64,000 bases of DNA from Catajapyx aquilonaris (taxonomy: Eukaryota), in NCBI GenBank assembly GCA_000934665.2, contig KZ538266.1, positions 1-64,000 of the forward strand, read 5' to 3'. Shown here in pieces: positions 30,015 through 64,000 of this stretch; position 1 is the first letter of the stretch, and every line of letters starts with the position of its first letter. The position numbers and the translations under genes are program-made. The notes beneath the pieces were generated by a model. It saw nothing but the letters and a program-made list of their open reading frames with translations. It was not told the DNA's origin and made no database searches.

Positions 30015-31038
30015 TCATAGATCATAGATCCGGTAGAGAGCAGACACGAGGCCAAAGGGCAGCAGGGCGAAGGAGAAGGTCAGCGAGTTGGAGGCATCCT
30101 TGTAAGCAGAGGGTTTGCCCACTTCGTTGCACCCACTTTCCTGGAAAAGAGGAAATGCCTCGTTATATACTATATACACACATTTTTATTTCCACGTGTG
30201 CAGACATATTTCTGTTGACATGTGTCAGTCATCACGGTGCACTTACGTCGTACTTTCTCTTGTAATGTTCCTTGTCGTGCTGGTAAGCGTCCTCGATGCT
30301 TCCTGTGCCATAATGGTACCTCTTTCCTAGACTGGCACACTCCACCTCGGCTCGAAGATACCTGCCAAAATGTTATCGCAAATGTCTCAAACTGACAGGA
30401 AGATTTCGCCAAAAAAAAATCTTCTTATCTGACCTGCACTTAATCGCCTTTCGTTCCTCTTCGGTATGGGCATTATTCCATTCCAACTGAAGCTCGTGAG
30501 CTACTTGGCACAAATCGGCCTGAGCTGGCCTTTCCTCATATGGTAACGCCGCTGCACTCCATGACAGGTACACCATACCTGTACATGATAAACAAAAATT
30601 GAACTGATAATTCTGAACCCAAAATTCATCTTATAGAAAAGTGATTTGTCCACAATCGATTTTAAATATTAAATTGGCACGCGTTCCTTTTGAAGTGCTG
30701 CTCCTTGTTGAGCGACAACAATTAACTCGAATATGACTCCAGCATTTTAAGACTGACGCAATGCCAATATTTTCAAGCCCACAATTATTCACATATGCGA
30801 TTGCGACGCACGGCAACAAGGACAGCCTCCACTTTTTAAATATAGGTCGGAGCTGCATAAAAATAGCAAATAAATGGCCCAAAGTAGGCCGCCACAGAGA
30901 TTTAGCAACAACAACATCCTGGTCCAGAATCCCACCTAGCAATGCAGGAATAATTAATCGGCTGGCAAATTAGCACCACTCGAAGACACGAAGGTGTTGC
31001 ATACCTGTCAGGATCACGGCCAGAAGAGCTGCCTTCAT
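30015..31038 (-). CDS. Paralog 7: secreted, putatively GPI-anchored 4-Cys protein, 139 aa
   Basis: Exons 31038-31005, 30578-30434, 30361-30247, 30140-30015. Protein: MKAALLAVILTGMVYLSWSAAALPYEERPAQADLCQVAHELQLEWNNAHTEEERKAIKCRYLRAEVECASLGKRYHYGTGSIEDAYQHDKEHYKRKYDESGCNEVGKPSAYKDASNSLTFSFALLPFGLVSALYRIYDL*. Confidence 0.88.
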
Positions 31039-36854: not shown

Positions 36855-39686
36855 ACTTGGAGAGCCAATGTTCTGAAACAAATTGCCAAAAAAAAACAGT
36901 CAGTGTCGTCTTTGAAACCCATCTTTTTCCCACGGCTCATTTACTGCGACCATTTGCGTGATCAGTGCAAACAGATCGAATTTCTAACCTACAAAAAAAA
37001 ATGTGGAAAAACATGGTGGTTCGTCCATTATTTTGTGGGTCATCCAAAAATAATGCGGAGAATAAATTTTGCAGATTTGGACCAGATTACGATGGATTTG
37101 AAAGGCGGCGGATTTGATGGCGTGACAGGAAAGTAATTGTCTGTGGACATGGGACAATCATGCGAAGAGCACCGGAGAGGGGGGGGGGGGTAAAAGGGTG
37201 TCAGCTTTACACAAAAAAATTTCATAAATTATTCATTGTTGTTCACCCCCAGCCATCTCTCTTGGAAGAGTCTAACTTACTCCTAAGGTACAATATACGC
37301 CACCGGTCTGTCACCTTGACGCTGTAATTACCCATAAAAAGGGAGAGTCAGTGCAAGTAAGTCACGAACACATTACGACGCCAAATCTACAGCACTCCAG
37401 AGGGATTGTCACACAAGCAACGAACACGACCAGATAAAGTGGCAATGATATTGTTGATTCCAACGGATAAGCCGCTCGTTTGGTTAAATTGTGTATTCCC
37501 TATATGTACACAGTGCATGCTTTGCCATGGAATGTACCGAGGGGTACTTACCCTGTAGCGGACTCAAAAGTCAATTATGTGTAAATGTGGAGGACGGAAC
37601 AATTAGTCTCGTTTTCCGTGCGAGAAGTGCAAGCAAGTCTACAATGAAGCTACTTATAGTGTGCTCTCTAAGTACTTTAATTGACGTTATTAGCATAGTA
37701 TTGCGAAAATTACTTGGAGAGTCAATCTGCTCAATTTATTTATTGAGTACTCGGTAACAATAATTTGAACTGAATATTTCGAGCATGTGCATGAGCCCGT
37801 GACATTGACCATGCTACAAATATGCGTGCAATAAAAATAATTAAGTTACAAATTGTCATAATTAGTTTGAGTACAATTGTCATGTTTTCAAGTTATTTTT
37901 TGCCAAACTTAATTCGTGCTACATTTTTATTTTGAAGATTGTAGCTGACTGCCCATTCATAAAAGCAATGACAAATTGACCGATACATTTGGTATGCATG
38001 TCATTTTGATTTTGTTCCCCTTAATGGCCATTGTCAGCTTCGCCGGGTGTTTCTTTTTATAGGCCATTGTCTGAGTCACTTCATACCAATTTGAGACCAG
38101 GTCAAGTAATTGGCAGTCAACGCGTTTACTTACCATATGTCAAGCATCCGCGACCCTTAAAGCTATTATTCGTCACTCTGGGATCGAGCTTGACGCAACC
38201 GGCTGTCTCTCGAGTGTGTGTAAGTGCAAAGAACTATGCGAGAACATGTGTTCGCACATGCCTGACTCACAGCAGGTGCCGGCTGCCCATAATGTGCAAA
38301 TCAAAAAAAACTTGTGGAAGGTCACTGAAGGACTCGCCTGGGACAGGAAATTAGCTCCACCCTGTATTTCCGTCCATGCTATTCGTGCTGGTCGAATGGT
38401 AATTACTACTTACATCCGATCAGCATTTGGAAGCAATTTCGCAAAAGAATTTAGTGGATCTCATCTCTGATCGCAAGTTACTTATTTAATGCTTTTTCAT
38501 CAAAAGATGATGCAACGCATGTAATAAAAAATACATGCGAAAAGATATGAAACTTGATTGTCAACAATCAGGCATAGACGACACAACCGATGCGACGTCT
38601 ACATATCTATACGTGTAGAGTGACCTTTGACAGTTGCTAAGTTAAGTTTGAGGAACATTCTTCAGAATGTAAACATTTTTCATTCGAATAATTATTTATT
38701 ATCTCATCGTTACGTAGTTACAAGTACATTAGAAGGACTTGCAAAAAATTGGATTTCTCACTGGATAGCCAACCGGTTATGTCTGTACGTTGCAATAATT
38801 GACGTCACCTAATGTTTTAGTATCAGGAAAACTATACCAAGGCAAACATGCTATAAAGCTCATTAAAAACAATTGCAAGTAGGCATTAATAGAAGGTACC
38901 ACAATTTTTATGCGGCGGTTCTTTGAAATTATCCAGTCGGTGTAATGTGCAATAACCCAGCACGTTTTTTTTAAAATTGGATGGCCAATATTTTTATGTC
39001 GGATTTGCATGTGGTCCACGCCATTTTCGCAACCTTTTTCCGGTTTAAAATCCCAAATAATATAACCGCAGCATGAATGCCTGTCGGTGTGCAAAAATTT
39101 CAATCTAAATCGCAGCCTGGCCATGCAAATGCGATCCGACACTTCCACAACCAGCGCGGAGCCATTTACCATGAGCCTAGGGGTCAATTTGGATGCGATT
39201 AGGATCAAACTCACCTGTGGCACGTGATGCTGCGACGACCAGAAGCGTGTTCACCACACTAAACCGCGTTTTTCCCTCCCAACATCCACAAGCCCCGCGC
39301 TCCTCCGAGCCAAGGTTGCAACGTCCTCGACCACTATAATTGGAAAATCACGCAGTTGCCAAGTCTACCCCTTTCCTCATCTTGCGTAACACCACACCCC
39401 TTTAGATCATCCCCTTGGAAACCGTTCCAGTTCTTTTCCTCTCTGACTGGCGTACATACAAAATACACTTGTTTTTCTCCCTTCAACCGTAGTATATGTC
39501 ATCGTAGGACTTAACATTCAAGTCATTCAACCTGCTTTAAAATGGGAAGAGCCAATTCTGCACGTTCAGATATTAGCAACTCATGATCGGAAGGTTGTCA
39601 GCCATTGTTCGTTAATATTCAGACCTGATGAGGCTGCAACAAAGGGAAGAATTGGTTGCAGTTTAGTTGACAGTGCGAACGTGGTC

Positions 39687-41069
39687 CTAGAGTGGTCCTC
39701 CTGGTCTAAGCTGGACCAGGACCACCATCACGGCCAAGAGATAGGGCGCCCCGAAGTCTATGGGTGGGCTCCCACACTTCTCCTGGAAAAAAGAGGCAAA
39801 CGGCCAGTATCAACTGAAAGGTTTCTTTCTTTTCAAAAACAGTGATAATGCTGATGTCGATGAAAAAAAAAAAGAGATTCATACAGATCCGTCTGTTCAC
39901 TTGTCGTGACTGTGTATTTGGTTTATGCAATTCTGCTCAATTTTTGGTACAACACTAGTTGGAAGAGCCCAACCCAAAAGTAAATTGTGTATCAACATGG
40001 AGGATTTACCACCAAGACAAGCGAACGAATCAATCCATCACATTTCCTTTTACTGTAATAGCGGAATCAATGGTTGAAGGAGACCTAAGAGAAGTTAATG
40101 ATGTAATCAGACTGAAATGCAGAATGAGGAAAGTCCCATTAAGAACGAAATTGATTACCGTATGTATTATTCAATCAGTCCTCAAAGCGAACGTTCTGAT
40201 GGTCATGCCATCTTTCTGAATGATCAATGACAGCACCTACATGCAAAAGTGTTGGGATAAACATGTTCCGCCACACCGGGCAATTCAATCTTCAAACTGC
40301 TATCCTATTCATATCTCCGAATTATATAGTCGAAATTACGTGTGTGTCTTTGAAGAACCACTCGTACTCCCTCGGAATCTTCTTCTTTTCGGGGGTGGCG
40401 TCGGGCAGTGCTTTTTCCATACACTTCACGTAGAAGTCCTGAGCTCTGGAAAAAAGAAATATAATTTCAGTTGTCAGGATTAATCTGAGCGTGATTAATC
40501 TGAGGCACGAGAACATAATGAACGATATGTACTGGATAAGTGATGGAAATATTTTTCTTAAGAGATTAGGCTACTAGAAATCTTACTGGCATGTGATATG
40601 TTCAACCCATCCTGGTGGCTCATTCGAAAAATTTCTGCTCGTTATTGGCTGACAATGTTACCATTCCAGCCCAGCATTTGCATGTAGTAATCGGATTTTA
40701 GGTTGACTAGCAGCCAGACATGACATGATGATTATATTCAACAGTAACCTACTTACGTTCATTTCTCTTACCTGCAGATAAGTCTGTCCTTGTCTTCTTC
40801 TGTGCGAGCAGAGATGGCCGCATACACGTCTTCGCTCAGCTCAAGCATGCAGTCAGCCAGATAAACGAACTGAGCACTTGTCACTTCTACTCCTGCTATA
40901 TGAAATTATTTCATCAGTGGAAAAAAGGCAACATATCCAACACCGTACAGCACACTGCAGTTATCTCAATTACTACTCGAGTTCAGTTGGAACACCCTGT
41001 ATATGAAAGGGGCATGTGGACAAGCGACTCACCAACAATGAGAACGACGCACAAGACTAGGACCTTCAT
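39687..41069 (-). CDS. Paralog 9: secreted, putatively GPI-anchored 4-Cys protein, 119 aa
   Basis: Exons 41069-41033, 40892-40772, 40445-40340, 39782-39687. Protein: MKVLVLCVVLIVGVEVTSAQFVYLADCMLELSEDVYAAISARTEEDKDRLICRAQDFYVKCMEKALPDATPEKKKIPREYEWFFKDTHEKCGSPPIDFGAPYLLAVMVVLVQLRPGGPL*. Confidence 0.87.
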
Positions 41070-43275
41070 TATGTGCATCTAACACAATCATGCCAGTGAC
41101 GAGGCTGGAACTACAAGACTGAGAAGAGAGCATCCGGTGTAGGATGGGTGAAGATATGACATAACACAGGAAGAGGGCATTAGCTATGGCTATCAGACAT
41201 GAGCATTTTCAAAATGTGAGTTCGATATTACCAGTCCGGGCCGATTAATGTGCATATTAAATTATTTCTTTCATGCAACAATCACCGGGAAGTGCTCCAA
41301 TGAGATTAGATTTTAGGATCGAATAATTTGTTATAAATCTTTGGTTTGTATTTATAGATTTCTCGCTCTATAGCATGCAAAATGAGGATCTTCTGCAGAG
41401 TGAGACAAAATAATGCTAATACAAAAAAATCAGTATGAACATTCTTCAAGGCCATTCAAGATTCATCCTAGCATAACCGATCATGATGCCATGTTTACCA
41501 TATTGTGAAATGTTTCTAACCTGACCTTACACAAAGACAATCATATGGTATCACTTAGGAAAATACACAAAGATTAAATTAGTCACAGGTTTGCATGGGC
41601 AGCCTGCCTTTTCACCACATCCGGCTGAGATGCGAGACAAAACATAACACCGAAACAGGATGAATGATATACTGCCATTGTGGCCTGAATGAACGGCAGA
41701 ATATTATGCAAAATGAAATCATTAATAATTCAGTGTGATGAGCAGCTTAGCATAAGCATCCAACATCTGTCCAACATACAACGGAGGCATTTAAAAACGT
41801 GACTTCAATTGCACTTCAAACAATCAAAGAACTGCACAATGGACAAGGAAAACTCTCAACAATGAAACCAACAATATTAAACACTGCGTGACTCCGTGCC
41901 ATTCGCTGGCTGAATGACCTGAAAATGAACATGTCAGTCTTACAAGCCCTATGATGTTGTCCTATAAAATCAAGACAGTATGTTGTAGTCCGGCAAATAT
42001 GCTGAAGAATTAATTATTAATTTGAAAGGATAGAGTATAGTCAGTGTTGGAAAATTTGGTTGTGGAACAGGTCAAATAATGAGACAAAAATACATTTTTT
42101 TTCTCTCGTCAACTGTATTGATGCTATGTACATGACCGTATCATACAGTTTTTTTGCTTTTTTTTAGAACCATTCCACCTGCCTCAAATGACCACAGCAT
42201 TAACCTGTACGAGATACGTTCAATCATTGCTAAAAATAAACCTTTTTTATAATCCCAGTTCAAATGAAAACTCAACAGGACTTTTTCGCATTATTATTTT
42301 GTACAATTCCTTGCATTCGTTTGTACCTTTCGGGATCCGAATCATACAATGTAAACTGCCTCCTAGCAGCAAAAAACCATAATTAGCAAATCCAGTCATC
42401 AAAGCGACCCACATCTTTGCAAATAGTCAAAAGCTAGGGTGGTCTGGTAATGGCATCGCCCAAAAAAGAAACGACCGGTTTCAAGTGCAAAGTTTTTGCG
42501 ATTACAAAGAGGTGTTAAAATCGCGTACAGTGCCACCAATTATTTTTTTCTAAATCGAAAAACCTGTCTTATCCGTGAAAAAAGCTGCTTTGAAAAAGTG
42601 AATTGCTTGGAAATACGTATAACATATTTTGAAGGTGGCGCAAAAAAAAAATGCATATATGTTATTTATTTTTGGCTCGTAGGACAACTTTGCATTTTGA
42701 TTGGAGGCAGTGAGTCTGGCAGCATTAATAACATCCACAATCCTACAACAGACAACAATTGGTTTGCGGGCGACTCCTCCTTCTTTTTTCTTTTTTTTTT
42801 GAGTTTTAATCCCATCAGCCACTTCCACCCAACAACTAGATAACGTCCACAGTATTTTTTTAACCATTTTCTTACTTAAATAATCTCGTGGAACCATATT
42901 TAACTGTAATGATCCCGGGCGACATTTTTCCACAGTAATAATAATTAAATTGTTAATGACGATGAATGATGATGGCAAACAGGAGGGGGGGGAGGTGTTT
43001 TGTAGAGAAGCGGGAGAAAACACGAACACTACACACACTCTACCTGCTGGTGGAGAAGGATGGGGACAGGCGGTATGTACATATTTTTGGTGGATTTAAT
43101 AACTAATGGCGGTTGCAGGCAATTAGAGGGTTTAATGAAGACACGGGCGAAAAAGTTGAGCTTGGAAGAGGTGGGGGTGGTTGGGCAGGAAACGCAAATT
43201 TGTGGTCGGTTGCTTCTTCTTCTCTTTCTTTTTTTTTTGGGGGGGGGGGGTTGTAGTTTTGGTGTGAACATGGTC

Positions 43276-46200
43276 CTAGAATGGTCCTCCTGGTCCGCGT
43301 TGGCCCAGAGCCACCACCACCGCCAGCAAGAATGCCAGCAGGTAGGGCGCCCCTACGCCTATCGGCGAGCTCCCACACTTCTCCTGTGGAAAAAAACAAC
43401 AATCGTCATAATCCTACTTCTATAGCACAGTCAGTGGCCAGAAGAAATCTTTGCAAATATTATTGCACGCTTACGTTTCTGTCTTTGATGAAACGTTCAT
43501 ACTGCTGCTGCGTCCTGTCCTTCATATCGCTGGTGGCGTCGGGCAGTACTCGCTCCACACACTTCACGTGGGCCTCATGAGCTCTGCAACAATTAAGCAA
43601 CAATGTGAACTTGGAGCTAACAATTTCATGATTTCCAAAGAAACAAAAAAAACAGTCATGAAACATGGTCCTGATAGTAATGAAAAATCCATAATGCACA
43701 ATTTTCTTCTGTAGAAATTGAGGATCAACTCGAATCCATAGAAATATCTACATGTTATATTATAAAGCAGAAAGTTTGTTGGTATGGATGCAGATTTTTT
43801 GTTCCAATTTGTGTTCATCCAACCGAGCATAAGTGAGAGTTTGCGAATTAGCTTCCTGCAACATCCCCCAATATTGGTTTGGCCCCCGTCAAGTGATGCG
43901 CACTTGGGAGGTTGCGAATAAGCTCGATAGATCGCAAAGGAATATTCGCGAGGCCCGAGTCGCAACCACATCTGGCGGCCACTAGACGAACGAAAAGCCA
44001 AGTCGCATAATATATTTTGCACGCGGAACATTCCCGACAGCCTGCAACGGTTCACATCCTGGATTTTCTGCAGGACTTTAACCCGGGCAGCGAAGAATAT
44101 AAACTTTTGAGCCCAACTTTTGCGACCAATTTTCCGTTATTTACATCGTTTTTTTTAAAGTTCGACATGCTGCATCTACTGAACCAAATAGCTCCATTAC
44201 GTTAAGAACTTTTTAGGAAGCCTTTTAGCAGATTGGGACTTAATAAATGGCGCACTATTGGCTGATCTGCTCATAACACACCCTAAACCTGGCCTAAACT
44301 ACTCAATTACGTCAGAAAAGCCCTGCAAATACTGAAATATTGCGGCTGTTTACATATACCCTCTGCACTCTGTACAGACATGCGTGACCTATTTCTGCCA
44401 AGTAATCAATATACGATGCCGCATTTAATTGAATAATTTGCTAATTTAATTTCTCTCTGCAGAACTATTTTTGCCCCAACTCTTTCCCTAAACTGTCGTG
44501 GAATTTTGTAGAAAAATTAATCAATTTGCAATAATTTGCAGATTTTTTGATGATACAGGCTGCAATATATTTTGATGACTTTATTTATAATCGAGCTAAA
44601 TGATGTGCATTTTTTTGATCAGTTGCTATATAGTGTGCAACAATTTAAGGACACGAGAAAAAAATGCGCAATTACCAATATTGATAGAGAGAGTATAGCC
44701 TAATATTTTGCAAGCTGGGGAAGGTATTTACCTAGTATTTTTTCACACCTACGGCAAGCTCAAATTTCACAACTGGGTTAATAACTAAGAGCTCTCAAGC
44801 TAATAAAGCGTATGGTGCTGCAGCCGACACCCCTTGTTTGGTTGAGTATGGCCAAAAAAATCGATTCTCTTGAGACCACGCCGGGCACGCTCAGCTATAG
44901 ACGCTTCCCATAGCAATTCTGCTCACATAGTCTCTACCAGGGTGGGGTCAATATCTGCCTTTTTGTTTCCTGGTCTCCAAGCTGCCTCTTTTGTTAGTCC
45001 GCAAAAACATATAGGTTGTAAACTGCGGAGTTTAAAAAAAACTTGATTTCTGTTCTTACGTGTAGCTCTGATTTTGCATAGGAATAATGGACATTTCAAG
45101 GCGCATTTTGCATTTCAGATGACCGCAGGGACTCTGTACGGGTACACCGCATGTACTCAGTGAGCTGCATGCAAACTTTACGAGGCTCCGACCACACTGA
45201 CACGCCCAGTGCCTCCCACTAAAAATTGGGTAAAAGTTACGTCCCTGCCAGCTTTTTTTTAACGTTAAAGTTTATCGGACGTTGCTGTCAACATTGTAAT
45301 CCCAGAGGTGTGCCGTTCATGGCGAGGTCGCAGTGTAATCAACCTTTACTCAAGCCCTGGTGGCCGAGAGAGCTCCACCTTCCACTTTTTATATATACTG
45401 TAGTATAAATTTATCCGTGTCAGGCACAATATAGAGCAGCGTGATCCTGTTAATTTAGATGCGACTTTATATGCGGTGATGTCCAATTAGCTATCAAACA
45501 GACCTTGACAGTTCCATTTTTAGTGTACATGTTTGTGCTAGCTCCTGATTATAGTATCATATCTGATATTAATAACACACCGTTGCACTATAGTCAAAGG
45601 CTTTTATTCCGTGGATGGCCTTTTATTTGCAGGCTAACTGACCTACTGGTGCAGCGTTTCCGCACTGTAAATGCCGATGTGGAAATGTCAAATAATGTGG
45701 CCGAGGTCCCATAATTCGAGTCAATTTTTCAGGAGAAGGAAATGAAATTTCCTGTTTACCCGATACACGGGCTCAATCCATACTTATTTGTGCACAAGGT
45801 AATACAGAAATAGTCCTGTGCCTGTCATACCCAGGACGGAAAGGCTTCATTTGTAAAACACAAGCTGAGCCGAGTATTTGTGCCAAAATAATGTAAAACC
45901 TCGTGTAGTTCCAGTCTCTGATTAAAACCCCAACTTGCATTACATTCAAAACTGCATTTAACATATTTTTTTCACAGGTTTCTCAATTATAAATGAGACC
46001 TTACAGACCGGTGACCAGACGTGTAACCTTGTTCTTGACCACTATAGGATGAATATTATACCAAAGGGATGAATAATGTATCTCTACAGTGCAATTGAAA
46101 GGAGATATGCAATAATGATTCAACCCGCTTGAGAACAGTTTTGAGAAGAAGGGCTTTGCATGTCACATCTGTGAAATTAAATTCGGTGTCCTTTTCTGTC

Positions 46201-50842: not shown

Positions 50843-52485
50843 GTTGGAAGGTCCCGACCTGCAACAAGGACACACACCGTGCTCTGTACTTGTAATATAA
50901 GTATGCGGATATAAGCGCCACAGGGTGTCTCGCAAAATACGTTTGCAAAAAAAATCTTTCGCGAACCTATCTCCTGCCTTCCTGTAACGCGATGTGTGGA
51001 TCCTCCAGCCCGCCTATATAGCGACGAATGTGTGTGTATGTGCTGCACACCGATGTATGTGTACGTCTAGGAGGAAAGGACGATAACAACAAGCCGCTGC
51101 TGCTTCCTCGTCGACGTCGCATATAGCAAAGCCCCAGTTTCGGGGCAAGGTCGTCGGAGGACCGGATCGATCCCCGCTGCGTCAGAATCCACGCTCCTGA
51201 CGTCACACCCACCGACGACTACTCCCCTGCTCCAGCAATGTCTCGACGGTTACACCCCCTACCTCTCTATACACCTATGGGATATGCCCCGGGTCCTATT
51301 ACTACACCCCTTTTCCGGGACTGGGTTTGGCCCCACTCGACGACATTGCTTCCGTCAACAACCCTATCCGGTTAAATGGACCACAATGGAATTGCGCAGT
51401 TTGCAAAATTGTCATCTGCACGGATTCGGACAGGTTGAGATGAACTGACCGGAAATTTTGTCAGGATATCAATGATAAAAACAGGACGTATGACTGTAAT
51501 GGTTGCGAGGTAATATTCTATAGCGGCTTATACAATTTTAATTTTGGCGCAATTTATGCTCAGGAACTTTCGGCGTGTGGCCAAAATCAGACGCGTATTG
51601 TGCGGAATTGTCGAATTATTCATGACGTCCAGCTGAGAGGCAATATCGAGGCCGCATTTTGGGGGGGCATAGTCTGCAAAATATTTTATTTTTTTCTGTC
51701 GTCGCTTAAACCCGGCGATGCAATTTCCTCGCCCTTAATCTAGGTTATACATACGACATGGGGATTACGCCACAAGCCGGTACCTCTTACACATATATAA
51801 TGTACCCGCCCCCACGAACCCCCCGCCAATGTAATTCCATTACCTTTATCCGCCTGGCGACCTTCGGAGCGATGGAGTTTCCTCTCTCACTATGCGTATA
51901 GGTCTATCTCTGCCGCACCGCAGAGTCTATCTCCCAAGGGTCACTCGAGACAGCGGTCAATTCCGAATGCTACCCGCGCATCTTCAGCACTTGACCTCTC
52001 TCTTGTGCAAAAAAAAGTTTTGCCGAGTTTGTGTGGCCAGTGCACCCCCCTTTCTGTACCGACCCCCCTCCCTTCCTACCCCAGCAGTGACACCATTGCA
52101 CTCAATTAAGGCGGAACCGTCATTCAAAGCCTGGACTTGCGCTGCGCATTTGTTCGGTTTGCAAATTGTGGGCAGTGGGCAGCGGGGGGCCAAGGACTCT
52201 CATGTCTTGGGTTCGATGCTCGAGACACTTCTTATAGGTTGTCTTGCCCCTGAAAAGTTGGCATCCTGTGTGTCAGAGATGAAGAAAAGGTTGGCTAATA
52301 TCCAGGATGAAGTTCAGGGACAAAGGTTTGTCCAACTGTAAGGAACCAGCCTTTTGGAAGTTGGACGTGCTACAATGCAATAAAACCGGATTTAATATAA
52401 CCAAGTGAATTGAAATGTACAAAATATAAAGTCGGATGTATATAAGGTGGGACGAATGGAGCGTAAAAGCTGCAGGGACTCGGTT

Positions 52486-54215
52486 TTACGACGAACCGGA
52501 GACCATTCCCAGGAGAGGCTTCAGAAGGAGCGACAGAAGCACCACTATAGCCCACGATGACCTCTGACACGCTGAGCCGCATTCAGCCTACATATAAAAA
52601 ATGCTTATTAAAATTTTACATAACACTACTTGGTGGCTCTAACCACACTATAAAATATAAGTATCTAAACTCTAGATCTCAGAAGTTCTCTTGTTACACG
52701 CATGACATTGCTCATTGCGCAATGTTACGTGCTGCGTGTATCGCTCTACAGAAGCGTGCTTCATCAGCTTGGTTGCTACTTATGAAAGTAATCCTCGTGC
52801 AGCTCTGGACGACCAGTGATTTCCTCACCATGTAAGCATTTCGGGCATCTTTGACCTTGAGTTCGACGCAAGGCTTGAGATCAGGACAGGGCCTGAGTTC
52901 CTCGCAGGCCCTGTGGTCCACGCAAGGCTCCTTCTCGTCGCAGTACTTCTCTCCGAAAGTGCAGTACTTCTGTCTCCTGGTGCACTCCTTCCAGACCTCG
53001 CACCAGTTCCTCCTCTGAAGACACTTGTCCCTGTAAGAGCATCTCTTCCTCAGCTCCACGCAGTTCTTTGGGTCTGAGCATCTCTGCCGCTTCTCCTGGC
53101 ACTCCTCAAGATCCTTATCGGTGTTGGCAGACACTCGGATCAGGCAGTCCAGCTGGACTCGCTGGGTTCTATGAAAACGAAGGGCGCAATTAAATAACTA
53201 TATGAAGGTTGTATCGAGCGTGTATGACCTCCGTGTTCATGATGTCGCGTGCTTGACGCCAGAACACACACGCAGCCAACGCAGCAGTCCAAACTTCTAG
53301 TCCTTGGAACAACCTTACCCTTAGGATTTCCCAGTCGCAATTATTATGATTCAACCAAAGTATGGATCTGACACGGAGCAGCGTACTTTTTGACGAGGAT
53401 GATAGTTGAAAGGGGAGACAATTGCCGAAGAAGTACAAACTACAGTAGCCTACTATTCGTGGAATTTATATTGTTTCAACCAGTATAATTACCACTCGAT
53501 TTTAATGCCAACTTTCGGTTGGAAAAACTTTATAAGCCATACTTTTTTATTTGCTATAGCCTACACACTGGAAAATCCACACTAAAAGTGTTCAGAAACT
53601 TGTAGACGAGATATTCCTATGATAATCAAAGACTGGGATTCGCTCAGAAGGCCTTGTGATACACTTGAATGGGGAATTTGAGAATTCAGGAACTTGCAGA
53701 TTAAAAGCGAGGCATAAAGAGAACGGAAAATGTTGCAATAGTATGAAACTTTGAAAGAAGAGTGGGAAGCGGTTGGAAGAACTTGAAGAAAGCAAACTTG
53801 TTGTTGATCCCGCAGGAGACAGTTTTATATAGTAAAATTGATTTCTTGTTATGGAGCCCTTTTTTTCATTTTAGCATATAATTTTGTTGACAGTTGAAAA
53901 AGATTTTGAGCGACCCTTCGAGCACAGCATTTTAGGCGAAGGCAACAAACAGTCTTACTCTTCTATATATCTAAAGAACTCATTATGAGTGAAATTGACA
54001 GAAGCTAATGACGCATAAAAACGCACTCTCCCTTACACGCATTCGAAGTCGTGCTTTTCGTGCTCGTCCTTGATGGAGGCCAGCTTGTCGTGCTGTTCTT
54101 TGTAGAGGTCGAAGCACTCGAAGACATTCTTCTGCGCCATGGCCACCTTATGGCTCCATTTCAGCGCCAGGCTCACCAGCACCAGAAGGCACCAGCAGCT
54201 GTGAGGAACTCCCAT
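52486..54215 (-). CDS. Paralog 11 (3-exon subfamily): putatively GPI-anchored protein with a 13-Cys ladder insert, 206 aa
   Basis: Exons 54215-54037, 53168-52829, 52587-52486. Protein: MGVPHSCWCLLVLVSLALKWSHKVAMAQKNVFECFDLYKEQHDKLASIKDEHEKHDFECVTQRVQLDCLIRVSANTDKDLEECQEKRQRCSDPKNCVELRKRCSYRDKCLQRRNWCEVWKECTRRQKYCTFGEKYCDEKEPCVDHRACEELRPCPDLKPCVELKVKDARNAYMAECGSACQRSSWAIVVLLSLLLKPLLGMVSGSS*. Confidence 0.9.
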
Positions 54216-55316
54216 TGCTGGTGCCAGCCTCTGCCTACGCACCTGCTGACACTCACTCGCAGGACATGACAGGGGCAGCACCCCCCCGCATTTCCTTGCA
54301 AATTATTCCCACCTTACCACGCATGAATGACCACACCCACATCTGAAAGTAACAGCCTGCCTCGGAGGTGTGTGGGACAGGCGCCTATACACGCATTGCG
54401 TATGGGAAAAACCACCTTATGGCGTTGAAACCTGCATGAGTTGGCAATGACAGAGTGTGTTACATGACCCAACCAGCCAATAGCAAGCTGGACTTCTATC
54501 AGATACGTATGATATGGTATGAATTATTATGTGACTGATGGCCAACAAAGGTGACAACTGCATCTGAAATGTTGCCTGTACTGTTGTAAATGTCCATTGT
54601 GACTTACGGTAAGCATTTCGTTCCCAGTCTTTTGCAGAGCGTGAAAGGACGCTTGTCAATATTATTGAGCAGTATTTTCACGACACCCTGTGTATGGATC
54701 AAACTGTCACGGATAAGTTTATATACGCTTTGAAAAGGGTCGCCCTCACCACCGATATTGCAACACAATAGAATACAATAGGAATAAAATATATTTTGTG
54801 ACTTTACACATTGAAAAAATACAGTATTGTTATATTGTCACACAGGCATCAGGTGTAGTTTGCAGGGCGAAAGAGTGAACCAGTTGTAGGAACATCAACC
54901 ACGATTGATTTTAAGGCTAGCTGCAATTCACAGTGTAACAATATTGAGACGGGTGAGAATTTATGCATTGTTCAAGATAGAAACCAGTTTGTAATAAGTA
55001 ATAATGCTTCAGCAATGCATTCAATTAATTAGTTCAATTTGTGTGGGACTAGAGCAGTGATAGCAACCAACCATGCCAACAACATATCGTCTGGCAACAC
55101 CGAATGGTCTTCTCTCATTGGGTGTAAGAAGTTGCAACCTTTTGTCATTCCTTCACGATTGAATTAAGAGAGGTTGCCAGTAATAATTTTGGTCGGCACG
55201 TTTGAAGTTAGACAACCTCTCTGAATCTCGTCGTCAGTGTCCAGTTACGCATTGTCATTTTTGAAGATGCTCCGTACCGATGTGGCATGCAAACCATTGT
55301 GGGCCGGTGACATCAG

Positions 55317-56084
55317 CTACGACGGTGTAAGCATGTGTCCCAATGAAACAGGCAGGATCAGCCCCACGACCACCAGCAGTGACCACGGTGACCTCCTGCA
55401 CGCCTCACACTCCGCCTGCACAAAAGATGTGTTGGAAATTATTTGGAAGAAAACAAAAATCTAGTATAAGAATATGCAAAAGATAAGTCACCAAGTAGAT
55501 CTTCTTGGCCTCTGTGACTTTGATCTTGATGCAGGGGCCCAGTTTGTCGCAAGGCCTGAGCTCGTTGCACTCTATCCTGTTGATGCACTGTTGCTTGTTG
55601 TAGCACTCCTGGTCGTGTCCGCATCTCCTCTGCCTCCGGATGCAGGCCTTACGGTCAGCGCACCTCTTCTTCAGCTCCTGACATCCCTTCGGGTCGGCAC
55701 ACACTTGACGTCGAACACGACATTCCTCCAGTTCCTTTCCGGAGTTCACCAGAACCCGATTCAGGCACTCCAGCTGGACCTTCTGGGCTCTGAAAGTATC
55801 GGGAAGAACATGAGCACTGTTAGTAGACTCATTATTTGGTTTTTTAACAAATGAATGGTGTTACTACCCATTTGGATGCAATTCTTGGGTCAAATATTTT
55901 CAAGCACAAAAAATTCTTACTCGCAGTCATAAGTGCGCTGCTCGTTCTTGTCCTTAACTGAAGCCAATTTCTGGTGCTGTTCGTTATACAGGTTGAAGCA
56001 CTCGATGACGTCCCTTTGCGCCATCACATTCTGGCGCCATAATAAGAGAAGGACCAGCAGCCCCAGCACCACATCAGTCCTCAT
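55317..56084 (-). CDS. Paralog 12 (3-exon subfamily): putatively GPI-anchored protein with an 11-Cys ladder insert, 186 aa
   Basis: Exons 56084-55921, 55789-55492, 55415-55317. Protein: MRTDVVLGLLVLLLLWRQNVMAQRDVIECFNLYNEQHQKLASVKDKNEQRTYDCEAQKVQLECLNRVLVNSGKELEECRVRRQVCADPKGCQELKKRCADRKACIRRQRRCGHDQECYNKQQCINRIECNELRPCDKLGPCIKIKVTEAKKIYLAECEACRRSPWSLLVVVGLILPVSLGHMLTPS*. Confidence 0.9.
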
Positions 56085-58161
56085 GCTGTTTGCCGAGACT
56101 TCTGCTGATGTAACTTTATCCCTGCTTCTGCTGTGCTGGCGTAGGAGTTACGCTACATAGCAACACAACGTGCATCGTTACCAGCGATAATAATTCATGG
56201 CCTTGTCCAGCACGCACGGATGACCTGCACCCCCCTAGTGTCCGACAGGAATACAAAGAATCTACGTACGTGCCACGCAGGATTCGATGTGTTTGAATAT
56301 GGCTGGGCCAATATTACCTTGAACTTGATAGATTCTAGGAGGTGCTCAAATCAATTAATCCATTGGGGGAAAAAAAAGCCGGAGGAAGAGACCCTCCTGC
56401 GTGCAATCCGCACTTAGACGCAATGAGGTAAGTACATGAGTTGGTCGTGTGGGCGGATTGATCCACATTAATTCGCATTTATAATTATTTCAGGCCTGAC
56501 GTCGTTGTCATTAATTACCTGAAGGCTCTTACAGTGCATTACGGTCATGATGTCGGCAGCAACGTGAAGGTAAGTCATCAATGTTGAAAATGAATTGTGC
56601 CTGTCTGGTAATGGAATATGCTCCCAAATTGTGGCTGAGTTAGTGTTCTTGGTGGCTCATGTACACGATTTAACGGAGATAAGTAGCAAAGTGGAGTAGT
56701 ATCCTTACTGATGTAAACTGGTGTCTGGGGAGTGATGTGACTAGGAAAATGTTCCTGAAAGTCCACGTGAGCTACGAAACTTAAATTATGGGATAACTTG
56801 CAAAGGCAGTCGAAATAGGATGTAAAAAGATATGATGTCATAATTCACAAAGCCACCTGCATCCAATAGTACCCAGCTTTTGATCAGTGGGACCAGAATA
56901 CTATGAAAGCTGAACATGGCTGATATGCCCCATTCCATTCTCGCAAAACTTGCGGCGAAATGCACTCTTGTATTGAACCGAGGCAACGGGGGGAAGAACA
57001 TTAGAAAAAGTTTATTACTGGCAATTACTGGAATTTATTGCAATCGTTTCAAGCAGTACTAGTATTACATTAGCAGCTGCGACGTTGCCACAATAACCAA
57101 TACTCACAATTAACATATTGACAACAATGCCAGTGTATCTCCAGTAATAACACAAAAACCAGCTCAAATCACGACAGAGTCTGCCATGTAGGTGTACTCG
57201 ACATTACAACTCCTGGTACTGAACTGTACAGAACCCAAGAGACAACCAAACAATGTATCCCTATACTCACTCAGAGGGTGACAAGATGACCCAACGTTAC
57301 AAGCACCTTCAGTCCAAATAAAGTGAGTTAGGGGACAAGGAGGCTATAGTAGAAGGGTGGGTGATTCTGTGGTTGGAAGGGTGGGAGGGGATGAGAACAA
57401 ACACTTCTTCATCTCAAAGGACACCATGGCTAACAGGGTGTCGACCTGGAGTTTATGGGAGAAAACCCAGCGCCATTTCTCATACTCCTAATCCTGCTGA
57501 CACTTCCAGACAATTTCATGCCAGCAGAAACATGAGGGGGTGTATACTCAATGGTTTTGGATACTGGTATTTTTTGTCATTTACGAGTACCGGTATATGT
57601 TTTGTTAATGCTAAAATTTCACACTAAGTAAATGTAGCATTACACCGGAAAATTGAAGGAAAATGCATGTTATCCTGGTATTAGAAATTTGAAGAGCATT
57701 TATATTCGAATATGACAAACATATTCTGATTTTGTCAGCAGATTTGTTTGCATAATTTCAAAGTGCTCCTGCGTGTCCTCCATCAAAACAGAAAGTAGGT
57801 CCAATTGAACCTGTCAAGCATTGTCATCGATTGAGTATTGCATAGCGATCGACCTCCGATCAAAGAACAAGTCATTTTTTAACAGTGTGGGGAGGTGGGC
57901 CTTTATTATTTTTTAAATAATCTGTGGGCATATGCGCATTGCCAAGGGGTGGTTCAAAAAGTAGAAAGCAGTGCCGCGCAGGGGGATGGATGGGGTGGTG
58001 TATATGTGTACAGTATAGAGGGGAATACGGCAACACTTGTTATAATATGAATACTATATAAGTTAGTATAGTTTAGTAATGCACGAAGAAGGCTTGGACG
58101 ATGCGATGCTGCGTGTGTGAGCGATGTGTTGGGGACGGAGCAGACGCAACGCAGGATCCTA

Positions 58162-60023
58162 TCACATAATGTTGAGGGCAGCCAGCAGCAAAGGCAGAAG
58201 AAGAAGCACCACCGAAAACACTCTCTCCCCGCATCCGCTGCAGTAGTGCGACTGTGCCAAAAGGAAATGACCATAATTACTGCAAGTTGTCTACTCCAGG
58301 ATTTCAGCAGAATTTTGGGCCACACCGTTCGCACCCTTTGGTGCGAACGAAGAGGAACATTGACTCACATTCATGAACAGCTTCTTGGCCTCGTTAACTT
58401 TAAGCTCGATGCAAGGCCCCAGGTTGTCGCAGGGCTTCCGGCCATGACACGCCTTGGACTTTGAGTCTTCCCCGCACTCTTTCTGCTCCAGATCCAGGCA
58501 CTTCTGCCTATCCTTCTGAGACTTCTCCAGGACTCGTATCAGGCAGTCCCACTGGACTTTCTTGGCTCTGGAAGCACAGATTGATTAGCTAAAAGTGGCA
58601 AAGGTGTCGCCAGGCTATTCTATTGTGCAAACAAGGGAGAAATTGAAGCAAGATGACTATGAAAAACCAGATTGTCACAGGTTTTCTTATTAGCCCCATA
58701 GTCCTTTATATTATGCATACTCGTATCGTATAGAGTATGGCGATGGGTTGGGACTGACACATGCTTTGCTGATTTCAAATTATGCGACATTATTGTTGCA
58801 GTTTATTCTTAAGCAACATGCTCTCGAAGAAATATCACGATTCACACGGACGAATGCGATTACCTGTTACTCTCGTGCAACCTTGGCTCGAAAATGATGC
58901 AGAACGTTTCTTGTGAATTCTGAGCTTCGTCAGGCCATTTTTTTAATCGTCAAGAATATTAAAATGTCTAGCAAAAATATCGATGCCAAGGTTCTAGAGA
59001 AATATTGGTCTTATCATAAATGTAAGGCAGAACTACAGCGCCCTTACTGCGCTGATCATACAGGTGTGTACATAAATAGTTGAAGCCCACTTACTCGATA
59101 GGTGCTATTTTCACATCCTGTACTGGCCACACAATCGAAATAAGCCAATTGGTAGCAGAAATTACTAGCAACAACAGCTACGATTGGCCGATTTAGATAG
59201 CGTGATGGCATGCTGCAGGGGAACCAACATTTGGTTTCAAGTAAGAAATATTTTTAGTCAGTCTTTACTCACACTATGGCAAATCTCAAGCCAGCGCATG
59301 ATCATTCAACGTACAGAATCGTACAGTAAAGTCCGGACCATTACGCAACGTAATACACCGCAAAGCTCCATTTTATGCATGCACATATTCGAGAAAAAAA
59401 ATCGACCAAATTGCCATGACAATACCGTCTAAAAGTGGATGCCATTCTTTTCATCGACAATGATTCTGGTCAATATGATCATGAACACTATCGTTTCAAC
59501 ATGCTGATGAAATTGCCCACACACATTCCCCAGGAGGAAAGAAAGGGAAGAAGTTACGCATTGTTCACTCCAGCAACCAGATTGAAAAGACTAACTTGAA
59601 ACGATCAAAAAGGACGTCCTTTTTTTAAAAAAATACTTTAAAATTCAGTCATAATGCTTTGTAGCTGGTGGATAGCAACAGTTTATGCTTCTCTCTAGTT
59701 GGTAGGATGAACAATCCGTAAATTCTACCCATTCCGGTCCCTCTTGAGCTTATCCGCCAATCAGCGCTATAGCCTGGACAAGGACAAACGAGGCTGTGTG
59801 ATTGGCTGATCTCAACTACAAACGACCCAACGACACCGTGTGAACCCGACAATGTTTCTTACTCGCAGTCGTAGGACTCCTTCTCAGCCTCGTCCTTGAT
59901 GATAGCCAGTTTTGAATGCTGCTCGTTGTACAGGTTGAAGCAATCAAAGACGTCCTTCTGCGCCGACACCCGGTGGCACCAGCTCAGCGCCACCACCACC
60001 AGAAGGCACCACAAGGCTCTCAT
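58162..60023 (-). CDS. Paralog 13 (3-exon subfamily): putatively GPI-anchored protein with a 5-Cys insert, 149 aa
   Basis: Exons 60023-59863, 58567-58369, 58251-58162. Protein: MRALWCLLVVVALSWCHRVSAQKDVFDCFNLYNEQHSKLAIIKDEAEKESYDCEAKKVQWDCLIRVLEKSQKDRQKCLDLEQKECGEDSKSKACHGRKPCDNLGPCIELKVNEAKKLFMNSHYCSGCGERVFSVVLLLLPLLLAALNIM*. Confidence 0.9.
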
Positions 60024-62013
60024 TATTGCTGGCTACGGTTACCTATATCTCTCCCTATTGAAGACACAGTTCATCCACACCTCAATGCCTAATGAGTAAA
60101 AGGGCATGATCAATATGTAACCAATTCCATGGCTACGTGTACTAAAAGGTGCACGTACCTGTGGAGTTATTGTCCTGTTAAGAAGCGAGTGGACCACCTC
60201 TGAGATCAGCTGTCCAGGACCAGCATGGTCACCTGAAGACAAGATTTTTTAAGGCATTAAATCAATGGGTGGGGGGGGAGACAGAGCACTGACTGCAGTG
60301 CAGTGAGTGGTTCTCGTGCGGAGTGTATCAAAAGCGGCCATGGATCGATCAGCATTCCTCATGACCCAAATTGACCAAAGGGGAAACCGGAGTGGCCGAA
60401 GAAAAATATTATGTACACAATAATGTCCCCCCGATGCATGAGCCAGTACGCCATGGTCGAATCGCGACTGAAAGTTGAACCAATCAGACTCTTATTTCTG
60501 GTGTAAGATAGAAATGGAGCAGAGTTGTACTTACCATCCAGCGGAGTCTGAAGGAGAGTGTTGATGGCCTTTGCGGCAGTCGGTATTGCGCCTGCGACGT
60601 CATCGACGACCAGGCATCGTCGTCGCCAGATGGCAGTGCCAGACATCGGATGATTCAGACAATATTTTTTCTTTGCAGTCGCCTCTCTGGTCCAGCGTGG
60701 GTTATGATGCTGTTTCCCCTCCCACGTACAGTATACATAATTTACATGCTCATAGTCATTTGCTCAGAGGCAGTTTCTCACACCCCCTTCCTTCCTTCCC
60801 TTGCCCTATCCCTTCATTGACTGCAAGAAGGGTGTCACTAATGTGTCACTAACTGTGCACACCAGTAATACTCTGTGCTCCACCCACTGACACTGAAATG
60901 TCACTTTGCAATTCAGTGACGTTAAAAGTCGGCCAAAGAATATTAATATGACAGTCGTGTTTTCGCAGAATATTTTAAGTAATTATTTAGTGAAATATAA
61001 ATGAAGTGTACTGTACACATTTTGTCGTTAATTCAAGCCTGTGACATGCACTTTAAAATCGTGATACAACAGTTAAATCCTACAGAGGCAATTTGATTAT
61101 CTTGTTAAAAGTGTCTTATGAGTTAGTGAACACTAAATGTCTAAAAAATAGTGTTATTCCTACCCTCCTTTGACTGCGGTTTTAAATGAAGGCATAACTT
61201 TATGAACCCATTTAAAATTTCAATTTTCGACCCTGATTATCAGGTAATGGAACCCTAAGGCAGAGTAAAGCTAAAAAGAAGAAGAAATGGCTCCATTAAG
61301 TAAAGTCAATCATCCCACGCTGATGGTGCATCGATTGAGCGGCAGAGAATGGATTCAAACCATGATTAAGAGAAAGAGCCTGGGCCTAATGGATGGAACC
61401 TTTATTAATTCAACGGGACGGTTATGCATCGAAGCGAACCAGGAACAGAAATATGTCAGAAAGGCTTTCTTCTAGTTCCCCCGACCGAATATTTAGCGTG
61501 CAGAAAATGTTAAACCAAGATTCGCTCATGAATATATTGGCACATGATGTTTCGTAAATGGACGCTTGATGGTCAATTCCAAGGAATCATATCATTCTAT
61601 AATTGCACAGGTTTCATTTGGCCTGATTATTTCATGATGTAGAATTAATCGTGATTAATGCTAGACATCTCAGTATCCCTATAGAAACTGACCCTAATGA
61701 TTTACGAATGGGTTATGAAACCGCGTATATAGAGACAAAAGGTTTCATACTGAACTGAAGATGCCAATGACAAGATATAAAATTCAAAGAGCAGCTTCTA
61801 ATTGGATAGAGAAAATTTCCCATTGGCACCTTGGGTTCATTTTTAAACTTTTGACCCTGAGTTAGTCCCAACTTCGGGTTGCCCATCTGCCAGTGGCTAG
61901 ATTGGCCCATAAATAAAGCCAGGTTTCACATTTCCTGCCACTCTAAACTTTAAAAATTCGGCGACAGGAACTCCCTAAAGTCTACTCGTGAGCAGAATCA
62001 AAGAAGGCCACTT

Positions 62014-62521
62014 TCAGGACGGCGTAACGACGTATCCCATGAGCATGGTCAGGACAAAGGCCGCGAAGGTCATGAGCTGCCACGGTGACCTCTTGCACGC
62101 GTCGCAATTTTGCTGCACACCCACAAGGCAAAAGATGGTCAACTATTTTTTGTTCCATGATTCGGGAGCAATCTACCACTCACTTTGAGCCCCTTCTCAG
62201 CTTCTTTGACCTTCAGCTCGACGCAAGGCGCCAGTTCCTTCAGCTTCTGGTCAGCTGCCACGTTCTGATGAACCCGGTTCAGGCAGTCGAACTGGACCTT
62301 CTGTGCTCTGGAACAGGACTGGTCAGCAACAAAGAGTGGACAACAGAATTCGCTCCATACTCGCAGTCAATATCGCGCTTTTCTTTTTCATCCTTGATGG
62401 AAGCCAGCTTGGCATGCTGGTCGTTGTACAAGTTTTGGCACACTATGACGTCAGTTTGCGCCATCACTTGGCGTCCCAGTTGCAGAGCCAAAAGTGTCGA
62501 CAGGCACCACAACCTCATCAT
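62014..62521 (-). CDS. Paralog 14 (3-exon subfamily): putatively GPI-anchored protein without an extended ladder, 127 aa
   Basis: Exons 62521-62361, 62307-62184, 62112-62014. Protein: MMRLWCLSTLLALQLGRQVMAQTDVIVCQNLYNDQHAKLASIKDEKEKRDIDCEAQKVQFDCLNRVHQNVAADQKLKELAPCVELKVKEAEKGLKQNCDACKRSPWQLMTFAAFVLTMLMGYVVTPS*. Confidence 0.9.
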
Positions 62522-64000
62522 TTTTGCATTCAGAGTAGCAGCGCTGACAAGTTCTATGCGACACAAGGACATCGTTAAACCCACATTCAGTACACACAGA
62601 TTATTACTGTTCGCACACCTTTATTTGGGACCAGACAACTGCTTACATGGCCCGTGTCGCCACCTGCCAAAGTTACATTCAGTTCATGTTGTTACACTGA
62701 TGCAGTCAACACTACACACTACCCAAGTTCTCCTAGAAATTATATCATTCCAGCCACTAGATAAGCTCCAATCAGGTCCACGTGCACTTATAGTGATTGA
62801 TGTTCAAACTGATTTCTTTAAGTAAACAATCCGCCTGCATTTTTGGCGGATTGGGACAGTTGCGCCACTCTGCTGCGCATTGGTCAGGGATCCTCACACT
62901 ATGTCATTTACGCGTTGTGACTAATAAATATATCGAGCGCCAGTGTCAAAATCTGTTGTAAAATCTTGCCCTAAATAACAAGTCACGCATTCTATGGCTG
63001 TGCGAAAAACCAGTCCCTAGTTGGTTTTTTTTTTGCGTATCCAGAGCAAAGATCTCGTGACAGTTTTCAATTTCCGGGTGAACGCGCCTAAAACGACTAG
63101 AAATATTGATTGTGTCTTCAAGCCTCGTCAAAATTATTCAGGCGGAAACATCAAGTCGGGTCTACTAGGCAATGAGGGCACATTTTAATGTCATTGTTGT
63201 GAAATGTTGGCCGGGCCATAAATAGTGCCACGCCCCCCCCGGCCAAAAATGATATGGTACAGGGTGATTGTGCTGTGGCGTTCTTATTTTTTTTCGTGAT
63301 AATTTACAGTATATGCCTACTTTTTCTAAATTATGTTGAATTCAAATTGCGGACAAGTATTTGTCCAATATTGTACTGTACCTTCTCCAGAAGTTCGGAC
63401 CCTGCATAAGTAATAACCATTCACTGATAGTATTTGCGATTTATTCAATTGGTCATTTATTGGTGAATAAATAACGTAAACACCGCAATTTTCAGTCACG
63501 TTTTTTTCTGGACCCTAATTGACGGTAGCCTAGTTGGACCCCTGACCAATAGCTTATTGCATGATACTTTGGCATGCAATCTCTCCATCAAGTGTCATGA
63601 TCGCAGTTCTTATTATTACGGAGCAATACCCCTTTCGAACTTTTGCACAATAATCATCAGATCGTCTTAAGTCCATTGCGTCAGAAAATAGATCCGGCTA
63701 TGCAGAGCCGGCTGCGTCATCAGTGTATGACTAATCAGGCTTTGATATCTCCCAGTTTTACTGCCTGTAAAACACTCGGTATCGGACAGTGTTCATGTCC
63801 GGCATACATTTTATGATCACAGCAATGGTTCGATTGCAAAATTCGTGACCCCAAAAGCATTTTTTTTTCAGGTTCAAGACTTGACGCACCATTTTTTTTT
63901 GTTTTGTTTTGTATCGATGCACAACACGACACACGGTTCTTCAAACAATTGTTCTACCAACATTTTCTAATTGCACGTACCGGTACACAGTGTATTATAG

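Follow-up and report, generated by a model that had tools for sequence, protein, structure and literature searches.

How do neighboring genes come to carry, at a single site of one small protein scaffold, cysteine-rich segments of different lengths, and what would such segments look like when folded? The question is raised by four adjacent paralogs, named here p11, p12, p13, and p14 (paralogs 11-14, all on the minus strand, span 52486-62521), in a stretch of 64,000 nucleotides of Catajapyx aquilonaris (contig KZ538266.1 of assembly GCA_000934665.2, positions 1 to 64,000 of the forward strand; hereafter the window). The reading we favor is that p11-p14 are old, transcribed tandem paralogs in which a disulfide-braced projection is built from short units rather than as one nested hairpin. 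We give this reading a probability of about 0.45.

Each of the four genes has three coding exons, with GT-AG borders at 8/8 modeled coding introns (53 to 1295 nt) and with intron phases 2 and 0 in common (coordinates in Table 1). In the gene models, exon 1 encodes a two-Cys segment after a predicted signal peptide (ending in V/A-M/S-A↓Q). In the alignment of the four, exon 2 starts with a ..VQ..CL.RV segment and finishes with L.PC..[LI]KV..A, while exon 3 supplies C-x2/3-C and a short polar stretch, followed by a hydrophobic tail of 17-21 residues up to the stop. The exon-2 flanking residues V4 Q5 C8 L9 R11 V12 on one side, and L P C K V A on the other, are invariant. The motif PC[VI][EK][LI]KV has exactly four occurrences (at 52853, 55516, 58396, and 62208). 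In p11, the protein order is signal peptide, helical core, a Cys ladder of 72 residues, CxxxC, and hydrophobic C-terminal tail. The region has 43% GC, with GC-rich third codon positions and many short introns (53-76 nt).

The length variation is confined to a single site, flanked by the CL.RV helix segment on one side and the PC...KV segment on the other, as a first-pass annotation of this DNA had claimed. The lengths it gave for the middle exon also hold (340 nt in p11, 298 in p12, 199 in p13, and 124 in p14), as do the 13, 11, 5, and 1 extra Cys that it counted beyond the Cys of CL.RV (exon-2 totals are 14, 12, 6, and 2). Relative to p14, the inserts amount to 72 (p11), 58 (p12), and 24 (p13) residues. 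The two peptides quoted in that annotation lie at 53021-53104 and 52868-52924 (minus strand), and the rhythm described there for the long forms, C-x6-C-x5 followed by C-x5, is visible in the exon-2 spacings: x14,6,5,6,5,6,5,6,6,5,5,5,5 in p11 and x14,6,5,6,5,6,5,5,5,5,5 in p12 (with x14,7,8,5,5 in p13 and x19 in p14). When 13 Cys are placed at random in 78 positions, spacings that are all x5 or x6 appear in 0/200000 trials. In the second half of the ladder, Pro precedes most Cys, and the motif x-[ED]-L-x-P-C is present once in p14 and twice each in p11-p13. The richness in K, R, and E attributed to the inserts is real (~45% K/R/D/E), with K+R versus D+E of 18/15 (p11), 15/9 (p12), and 6/5 (p13), that is, net charges of +3, +6, and +1.

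The genes p11-p14 are transcribed. Logan contigs of two public runs, X5 and the DNA run X1, were placed on 52001-63000. X5 is one run of one study; its kind is not recorded, and its sample and study differ from those of the likely source runs. Joints in X5 are found at 7/8 modeled coding introns and have CT..AC ends, equivalent to GT..AG when read on the minus strand. They connect 53168 to 54037 and 52586 to 52828 in p11 (both introns), 58567 to 59863 and 58251 to 58369 in p13 (both introns), 62307 to 62361 and 62112 to 62184 in p14 (both introns), and 55414 to 55491 in p12 (intron 2; intron 1 and exon 1 lie outside X5 coverage). Two further joints mark introns in the 5′ untranslated regions (UTRs) of p13 and p14 (Table 1). 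Because X5 covers exons and UTRs, without introns and spacers, the simplest reading of it is a transcript assembly. None of its joints occurs in X1, whose single contig spans the whole stretch. Transcripts that splice the insert out, which the first-pass annotation had raised as a danger to its own model, do not appear: the middle exon is kept in every X5 contig that reaches it, in contigs of a sort that drop rare forms.

Other details of the two runs may be mentioned here. The X5 contig of p14 has, at its 5′ end (minus strand), 19 loose letters past 62664, which may represent either a spliced leader or one more 5′ exon, a choice that so short a piece does not settle. At 59543-59580, inside intron 1 of p13, many separate X1 contigs start or stop, which indicates a short dispersed repeat. 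One X1 contig joins 54977 to 59543 with 40 other letters between and, since its shorter side has only 21 letters, the link probably reflects that repeat instead of a deletion allele. At 52294, the window and the X1 contig differ by a single G>A.

The four paralogs are old copies kept under purifying selection. In the core, the synonymous divergence (dS) is 0.90-1.44 across the six p11-p14 pairs and saturated in 6/6, and the ratio of nonsynonymous to synonymous divergence (dN/dS) is 0.19-0.37. Between p11 and p12, the ladder Cys columns are identical in 11/11 cases, against 19/53 for the non-Cys ladder columns and 17/35 for the flank columns. In a tree of 91 gap-free columns, rooted with two distant paralogs, the p11-p14 clade has a support of 100 and the inner nodes have supports of 40 and 55. 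With dS saturated in all six pairs and inner supports of this order, the stepwise "telescoping" growth along the chromosome suggested by the first-pass annotation is not borne out; a monotonic chromosome order of four items is expected by chance in 2/24 orderings.

The ladder is a derived feature of p11-p13, since the three distant paralogs that could be read (at ~4, 8, and 35 kb) have short loops at that site. Exon 2 of each holds a single Cys and no ladder, and the paralogs at 4 and 8 kb align without an insertion at the ladder site, which would fit insertion into a loop. Two Cys, that of the PC motif and the second one of exon 3, are confined to p11-p14.

The sequence traces of the ladder's origin are faint. 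p11 exceeds p12 by a stretch of 14 residues, including 2 Cys, that lies between its Cys 61 and Cys 87. A duplication of 39-nt units, which had been proposed, is at best weak: DNA lag 39 gives z 2.7 (p11) and 1.45 (p12), with no Tandem Repeats Finder match. At the shorter period of 18 nt, the p11 DNA gives z 3.9 against shuffles with Cys codons fixed, and a tandem repeat of that period lies in the C-x5 half of its ladder (Table 1). At the protein level, lag 12 in p11 has p 0.001, uncorrected for nine lags.

The first four Cys of the ladder are arranged in a mirror pattern, C-x6-C, a five-residue turn, and C-x6-C, as a helix-turn-helix with two nested disulfides would require. The arrangement C-x6-C, x5, C-x6-C is found twice in p11 and once exactly in p12, where the second copy ends in C-x5-C. 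AlphaFold2 was run, without coordinates, on exon 2 alone of p11 and p12, with the four core Cys outside the model. For p11, the mean predicted local distance difference test score (pLDDT) is 67.8 and the predicted template modeling score (pTM) 0.53, with helices at 2-14, 17-28, 33-67, 85-89, and 98-112; for p12, they are 55.3 and 0.30, with helices at 2-31, 33-56, 60-65, 71-77, and 80-98. The C-x6-C-x5 half is helical in both models, with a break at the DPK[N/G] turn in each (p11 residues 29-32, p12 residue 32) and a second break in p12 at a GHD loop. The p11 model leaves the Pro-containing half (residues 68-97) irregular, and a helical conformation of this second half is unlikely in view of its prolines.

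Helix-turn-helix folds closed by two nested disulfides between mirror-image Cys pairs are those of the alpha-hairpinins (plant, with C-x3-C pairs) and of the CHCH domains (mitochondrial, with twin C-x9-C). The ladder resembles them in its succession of C-x6-C, DPK[N/G] turn, and C-x6-C and in the way the low-confidence models break the helix at the turn; it differs from them in spacing and cellular location, and it shows no sequence similarity to them, with no match in Pfam.

The first-pass annotation had proposed another fold, in which the whole insert forms one out-and-back hairpin with fully nested disulfides and grows by rungs. Such a hairpin would account for the even numbers of insert Cys once the ancestral PC Cys is set aside (12 in p11, 10 in p12, and 4 in p13) and for p11 arm spacings that are roughly mirror-symmetric around Cys 55-61 (7,6,7,6,7 versus 6,6,6,7,7). 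It is compatible as well with the long outgoing helix (33-67) and the returning segment (68-112) of the p11 model, which aligns to antiparallel helical bundles or hairpins with Z up to 7.6, although, for helical models, matches at Z below 8 are of a generic kind. The geometry is less favorable: with ~1.5 Å per residue in a helical arm and ~3 Å in an extended Pro-rich arm, the rungs would run out of register, and Cys at positions i, i+7, i+13, and i+20 of an ideal helix are calculated to spiral round the axis, with no single stripe. Besides, the p11/p12 difference lies on one arm only, so that in a nested hairpin Cys 42, 48, 55, and 61 would have to swap partners, while pairing the two additional neighboring Cys of p11 with each other leaves all other bonds unchanged. 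From the mirror pattern, this one-sided difference, and the antifreeze precedent discussed below, we infer local units rather than a long nested hairpin, which we regard as rather unlikely.

Structural comparisons of the p11 exon-2 model were made in several ways. Foldseek finds no match in the PDB at E ≤ 0.001. In VIA-align wide, a designed helical bundle gives the best Z (7.6). Modeled as separate chains, the two halves of the p11 ladder score 0.02 against a mark of 0.34, which is evidence neither way.

In the favored reading, with short units, the protein would consist of a signal peptide, a short helical ectodomain with few disulfides, and a hydrophobic tail (similar to a glycosylphosphatidylinositol [GPI] signal, or a tail anchor). 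In p13, p12, and p11, the loop that joins core segments two and three would be expanded to a module of 24, 58, and 72 residues with a Cys every 6-7 residues and ~45% of charged residues. The module would be extracellular and fully oxidized and would form a rigid extension, with disulfides in place of a hydrophobic core. Its first part may contain one or two helix-turn-helix units (C-x6-C, 5-residue turn, C-x6-C), the conserved DPK[N/G] being the first turn. Proline-containing C-x5 units, x-[ED]-L-x-P-C, would then follow, as copies of the ancestral segment whose last residue is the PC Cys. Changes in length would come from the gain or loss of units with two neighboring Cys, whereby the Cys parity would be kept. 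The likely role would be that of a cell-surface spacer or of a binding projection of graded reach.

Periodic Cys with a spacing of six can also be read in another way. In the part of the source that describes their repeats, beetle antifreeze proteins (AFPs) contain 6-11 copies of the 12-residue TCTxSxNCxxAx, with disulfides between Cys six apart (27-33, 39-45, etc.) (PMC8038014). The ladder proteins resemble those of Tenebrio molitor (TmAFP) and Dorcus (DhbAFP), which, as far as that text goes, are secreted, have periodic Cys (every sixth residue in AFP), and have isoforms differing in unit number (PMC8038014). A six-residue Cys period can thus mean, by analogy with the AFPs as described there, sequential solenoid bonds, with isoforms that differ by whole units (PMC8038014). 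On that analogy, beetle AFPs would be the best precedent for a length series of paralogs on a periodic Cys scaffold.

The ladder could even be such a solenoid or coil stack itself, with coils of 12-13 residues closed by Cys(i)-Cys(i+6/7) and paralogs that differ by coils. The Cys period of 6-7 agrees with this, as do the 2 Cys per unit of 12-13 residues and the 14 residues, again with 2 Cys, by which p11 and p12 differ, and the Tenebrio structure 1EZG is among only three PDB sequences touched by the exon-2 profile (with a non-significant E of 6.2). Yet the consensus TCTxSxNCxxAx is absent from the ladder, with neither a TCT nor a small-residue pattern, and the inward positions would be occupied by H, R, or L, not by S or A. 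The content of ~45% K/R/D/E favors helix, and AlphaFold gives helix, not strand, for the first half. The ladder is, in addition, inserted in a helical protein predicted to be membrane-anchored and is not a free solenoid. We therefore rejected TmAFP-type membership, as the ladders have no TCT motif, and a solenoid of this type seems to us unlikely.

The low-density lipoprotein (LDL) receptor class A module has six Cys per roughly 40 residues, spaced C-x6-C-x5-C-x6-C-x5-C, and an acidic D-x-S-D-E calcium cage. The ladder follows that spacing in its first Cys. In Pfam searches with the 8 exon peptides, the only match, below threshold, is of Ldl_recept_a (PF00057) to exon 2 of p12 (E 0.0092, 16.6 bits versus a gathering score of 24.1), with no match of PF00057 to the exon-2 peptides of p11, p13, and p14 at E up to 10. 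Against PDB sequences, the exon-2 profile gives three entries, none significant, of which an LRP2 class A module is the best (E 0.16), followed by 1EZG (E 6.2) and C9 (E 8.2). The ladder departs from the class A module in having no acidic cluster after the fifth ladder Cys (p12 has YNKQQ there), in numbers of added Cys (12, 10, 4) that are not multiples of six, and in being basic, not acidic. Membership was rejected on the sub-threshold p12 score, the three paralogs without a match, and the absent calcium cage.

The Cys content itself (13 Cys in 78 residues) is the sole feature that recalls a metal-thiolate cluster as in metallothioneins. The ladder has no C-C, C-x-C, or C-x-x-C, with spacings of x5-x8 only; W, Y, and F are present; the proteins have a predicted signal peptide and are predicted to be extracellular; and no Pfam metallothionein family matches any exon-2 peptide at E up to 10. 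Metallothionein membership was rejected, and a cluster of this kind is hardly credible here.

Bovine ultralong heavy-chain third complementarity-determining regions (CDR H3) arise by V-D-J joining and somatic mutation and have a beta-ribbon stalk with a small irregular knob. In the part of the source concerned with their size, they are loop excursions of up to about 70 aa that contain disulfides and leave a folded extracellular domain (PMC5994613). The comparison with them drawn in the first-pass annotation stands as an analogy, that of a long disulfide-containing loop excursion. The immunoglobulin context does not carry over: no immunoglobulin family is found by Pfam in the exon peptides, and the insert is germline-fixed and periodic, on a helical scaffold of another type.

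The p11-p14 family is an orphan, with no credible relatives found in sequence, metagenome, and fold searches. Pfam was run on 131 of the 143 open reading frames (ORFs) of at least 80 aa in the window, with 0 matches at the curated cut-off; the other 12 comprise five exon ORFs already searched and seven antisense to them. Two sub-threshold matches among the 131, FXR_C1 and DUF5558, were set aside as due to chance. Word-index searches of longer proteins, with p12 exon 2 and the exon-1 alignment as queries, give no relatives. Among 1,835,955,588 protein representatives, the exon-2 profile has one match (P0001), to a protein of 1139 aa made of EGF-like repeats; the match consists of 13 weak stretches and was judged spurious. 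The ESM Atlas gives no usable match. Two loci from the metagenome scan were discarded as a chance word match in a long ORF of ~50% GC, with the exon-2 and exon-3 profiles unmatched. Rfam has 0 matches in the window, and nothing relevant on a described family with these features appears in the portions of the literature covered by a search.

At both ends, the p11-p14 models have the features of the GPI class: they start with a predicted signal peptide and finish in a hydrophobic stretch. No residue separates this tail from the stop codon, which lies in the last exon, and X5 contigs extend beyond it into the 3′ UTR. Judged from its sequence, the tail is compatible with either a GPI signal or a tail anchor. 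GPI-anchored proteins have small residues at the attachment position and again two residues on, 5-10 residues ahead of the hydrophobic stretch. Before the tail, the distant paralogs have textbook small-residue sites such as C-S-G-A-S, after the single exon-3 Cys. In p11-p14, the best candidate for attachment is the first Cys of C-x2/3-C; the R-S-P/S-W that follows the second Cys is a poor site.

The assignment of that site matters for the Cys parity. The differences in Cys number between paralogs are even steps (+4, +6, +2). Of the 20, 16, 12, and 7 Cys of the whole proteins (p11-p14), 2, 0, 2, and 1 come before the predicted A-x-A↓Q cleavage site. Those that remain after the predicted signal peptide number 18, 16, 10, and 6, even throughout as the first-pass annotation had said, if both exon-3 Cys stay in the mature protein. 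The argument from parity is conditional, since a cleavage that removes the second exon-3 Cys would leave odd mature numbers. An odd number of this origin, together with the net positive inserts and the low confidence of the models, would suit Cys that are mainly not intramolecular, either as covalent cross-links of a surface coat or matrix or in a flexible cationic region (e.g., antimicrobial or polyanion-binding). The always even increments, and a very regular spacing with 11/11 Cys columns kept between old paralogs, speak rather for a defined scaffold, and we hold cross-linking or a flexible cationic region to be improbable.

Several points weigh against the braced projection built from short units. 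The disulfides are predicted, and none is observed. AlphaFold confidence is low (67.8 and 55.3), for exon 2 folded alone with the four core Cys left out, and the p11 model has one helix over 33-67, without the second turn that the units would call for. The p13 ladder (x7, x8, x5, x5) fits the unit pattern poorly. Likeness between repeats beyond the Cys is weak, protein lag 13 being not significant (p 0.10 in p11 and 0.07 in p12). There is no canonical GPI site after the second exon-3 Cys in p11-p14, and anchoring and Cys parity are uncertain to that extent. The evidence for transcripts is limited to one study and a single run whose kind is not recorded.

The surroundings of the four genes are of the same nature. 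The whole window appears to be a single tandem array of roughly a dozen or more genes, which encode small anchored proteins of one diverged family, and the numbering of the paralogs in the first-pass annotation fits such an array. Close copies are limited, within the window, to p11-p14: exon profiles recover 4/4, with no other ORF below E 0.07. At least eight further last exons resembling GPI signals lie on the minus strand in window 3760-43400, with ends at ~3760, 7413, 15394, 21579, 26751, 35163, 39690, and 43279, each with Cys, small residues, and a hydrophobic tail. Pieces similar to exon 1 and exon 2 are found on the minus strand at 4006-4411, 7679-8049, 30235-30372, and 35259-35444.

For the ~8 kb paralog (7843-8049, minus strand), an ORF with the appearance of a signal peptide (8298-8426) lies ~300 nt upstream of the first family exon. 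An in-frame splice from that ORF to the family exon was looked for and not found, so that either the 5′ structure of this paralog is unlike that of p11-p14 or the gene is defective. Two long plus-strand ORFs (39447-39845 and 43006-43425), antisense to the last exons with tails ending at 39690 and 43279, are similar to each other, and the two paralogs concerned are therefore a closer pair. Antisense to p14, a plus-strand open frame of 249 aa (62076-62825), without a Pfam match, crosses the gene; codon bias in the sense gene probably accounts for it.

Table 1. Coordinates of the p11-p14 genes and of features within them (window positions)
Feature	Position	Strand	Details
p11 coding span	52486..54215	-	exons 54215-54037, 53168-52829, 52587-52486 (including stop); 206 aa
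p12 coding span	55317..56084	-	exons 56084-55921, 55789-55492, 55415-55317; 186 aa, 58-aa ladder
p13 coding span	58162..60023	-	exons 60023-59863, 58567-58369, 58251-58162; 149 aa, 24-aa insert
p14 coding span	62014..62521	-	exons 62521-62361, 62307-62184, 62112-62014; 127 aa, without insert, six-Cys core form
p11 ladder	52868..53101	-	first ladder Cys to PC-motif Cys; 13 Cys, x6,5,6,5,6,5,6,6,5,5,5,5
p12 ladder	55531..55722	-	11 Cys, x6,5,6,5,6,5,5,5,5,5
p13 short ladder	58411..58500	-	5 Cys, x7,8,5,5
p14 insertion site	62223..62285	-	19-residue loop, CL.RV Cys to PC Cys
18-nt (6-aa) tandem repeat	52887..52928	-	C-x5 half of p11 ladder; 2.3 copies, 75% matches
5′ UTR intron of p13, 70 nt	60088..60157	-	X5 joint 60087 to 60158, CT..AC ends
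5′ UTR intron of p14, 65 nt	62554..62618	-	X5 joint 62553 to 62619

A stronger form of the proposal is that the four genes display rigid, disulfide-stapled projections graded at 0, 24, 58, and 72 residues, all from one loop of a membrane-anchored helical protein, in a new family and possibly with a fold held by disulfides only. This we would put forward as an outside chance. In this graded form, neighboring genes would show one scaffold at different reaches, as a molecular ruler or as a binding module of variable reach. The matter has no bearing on long-standing open questions. A structure might add a new small fold, for a family without detectable relatives, and the module, if real, would offer an engineering template for a rigid spacer of adjustable length. 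It would also be an example of loop growth by short units with the Cys parity kept. If the ladder is a folded all-disulfide module, the four genes would constitute a natural length series of one scaffold, in which each length step would already have been tested by selection, since the copies are old and constrained.

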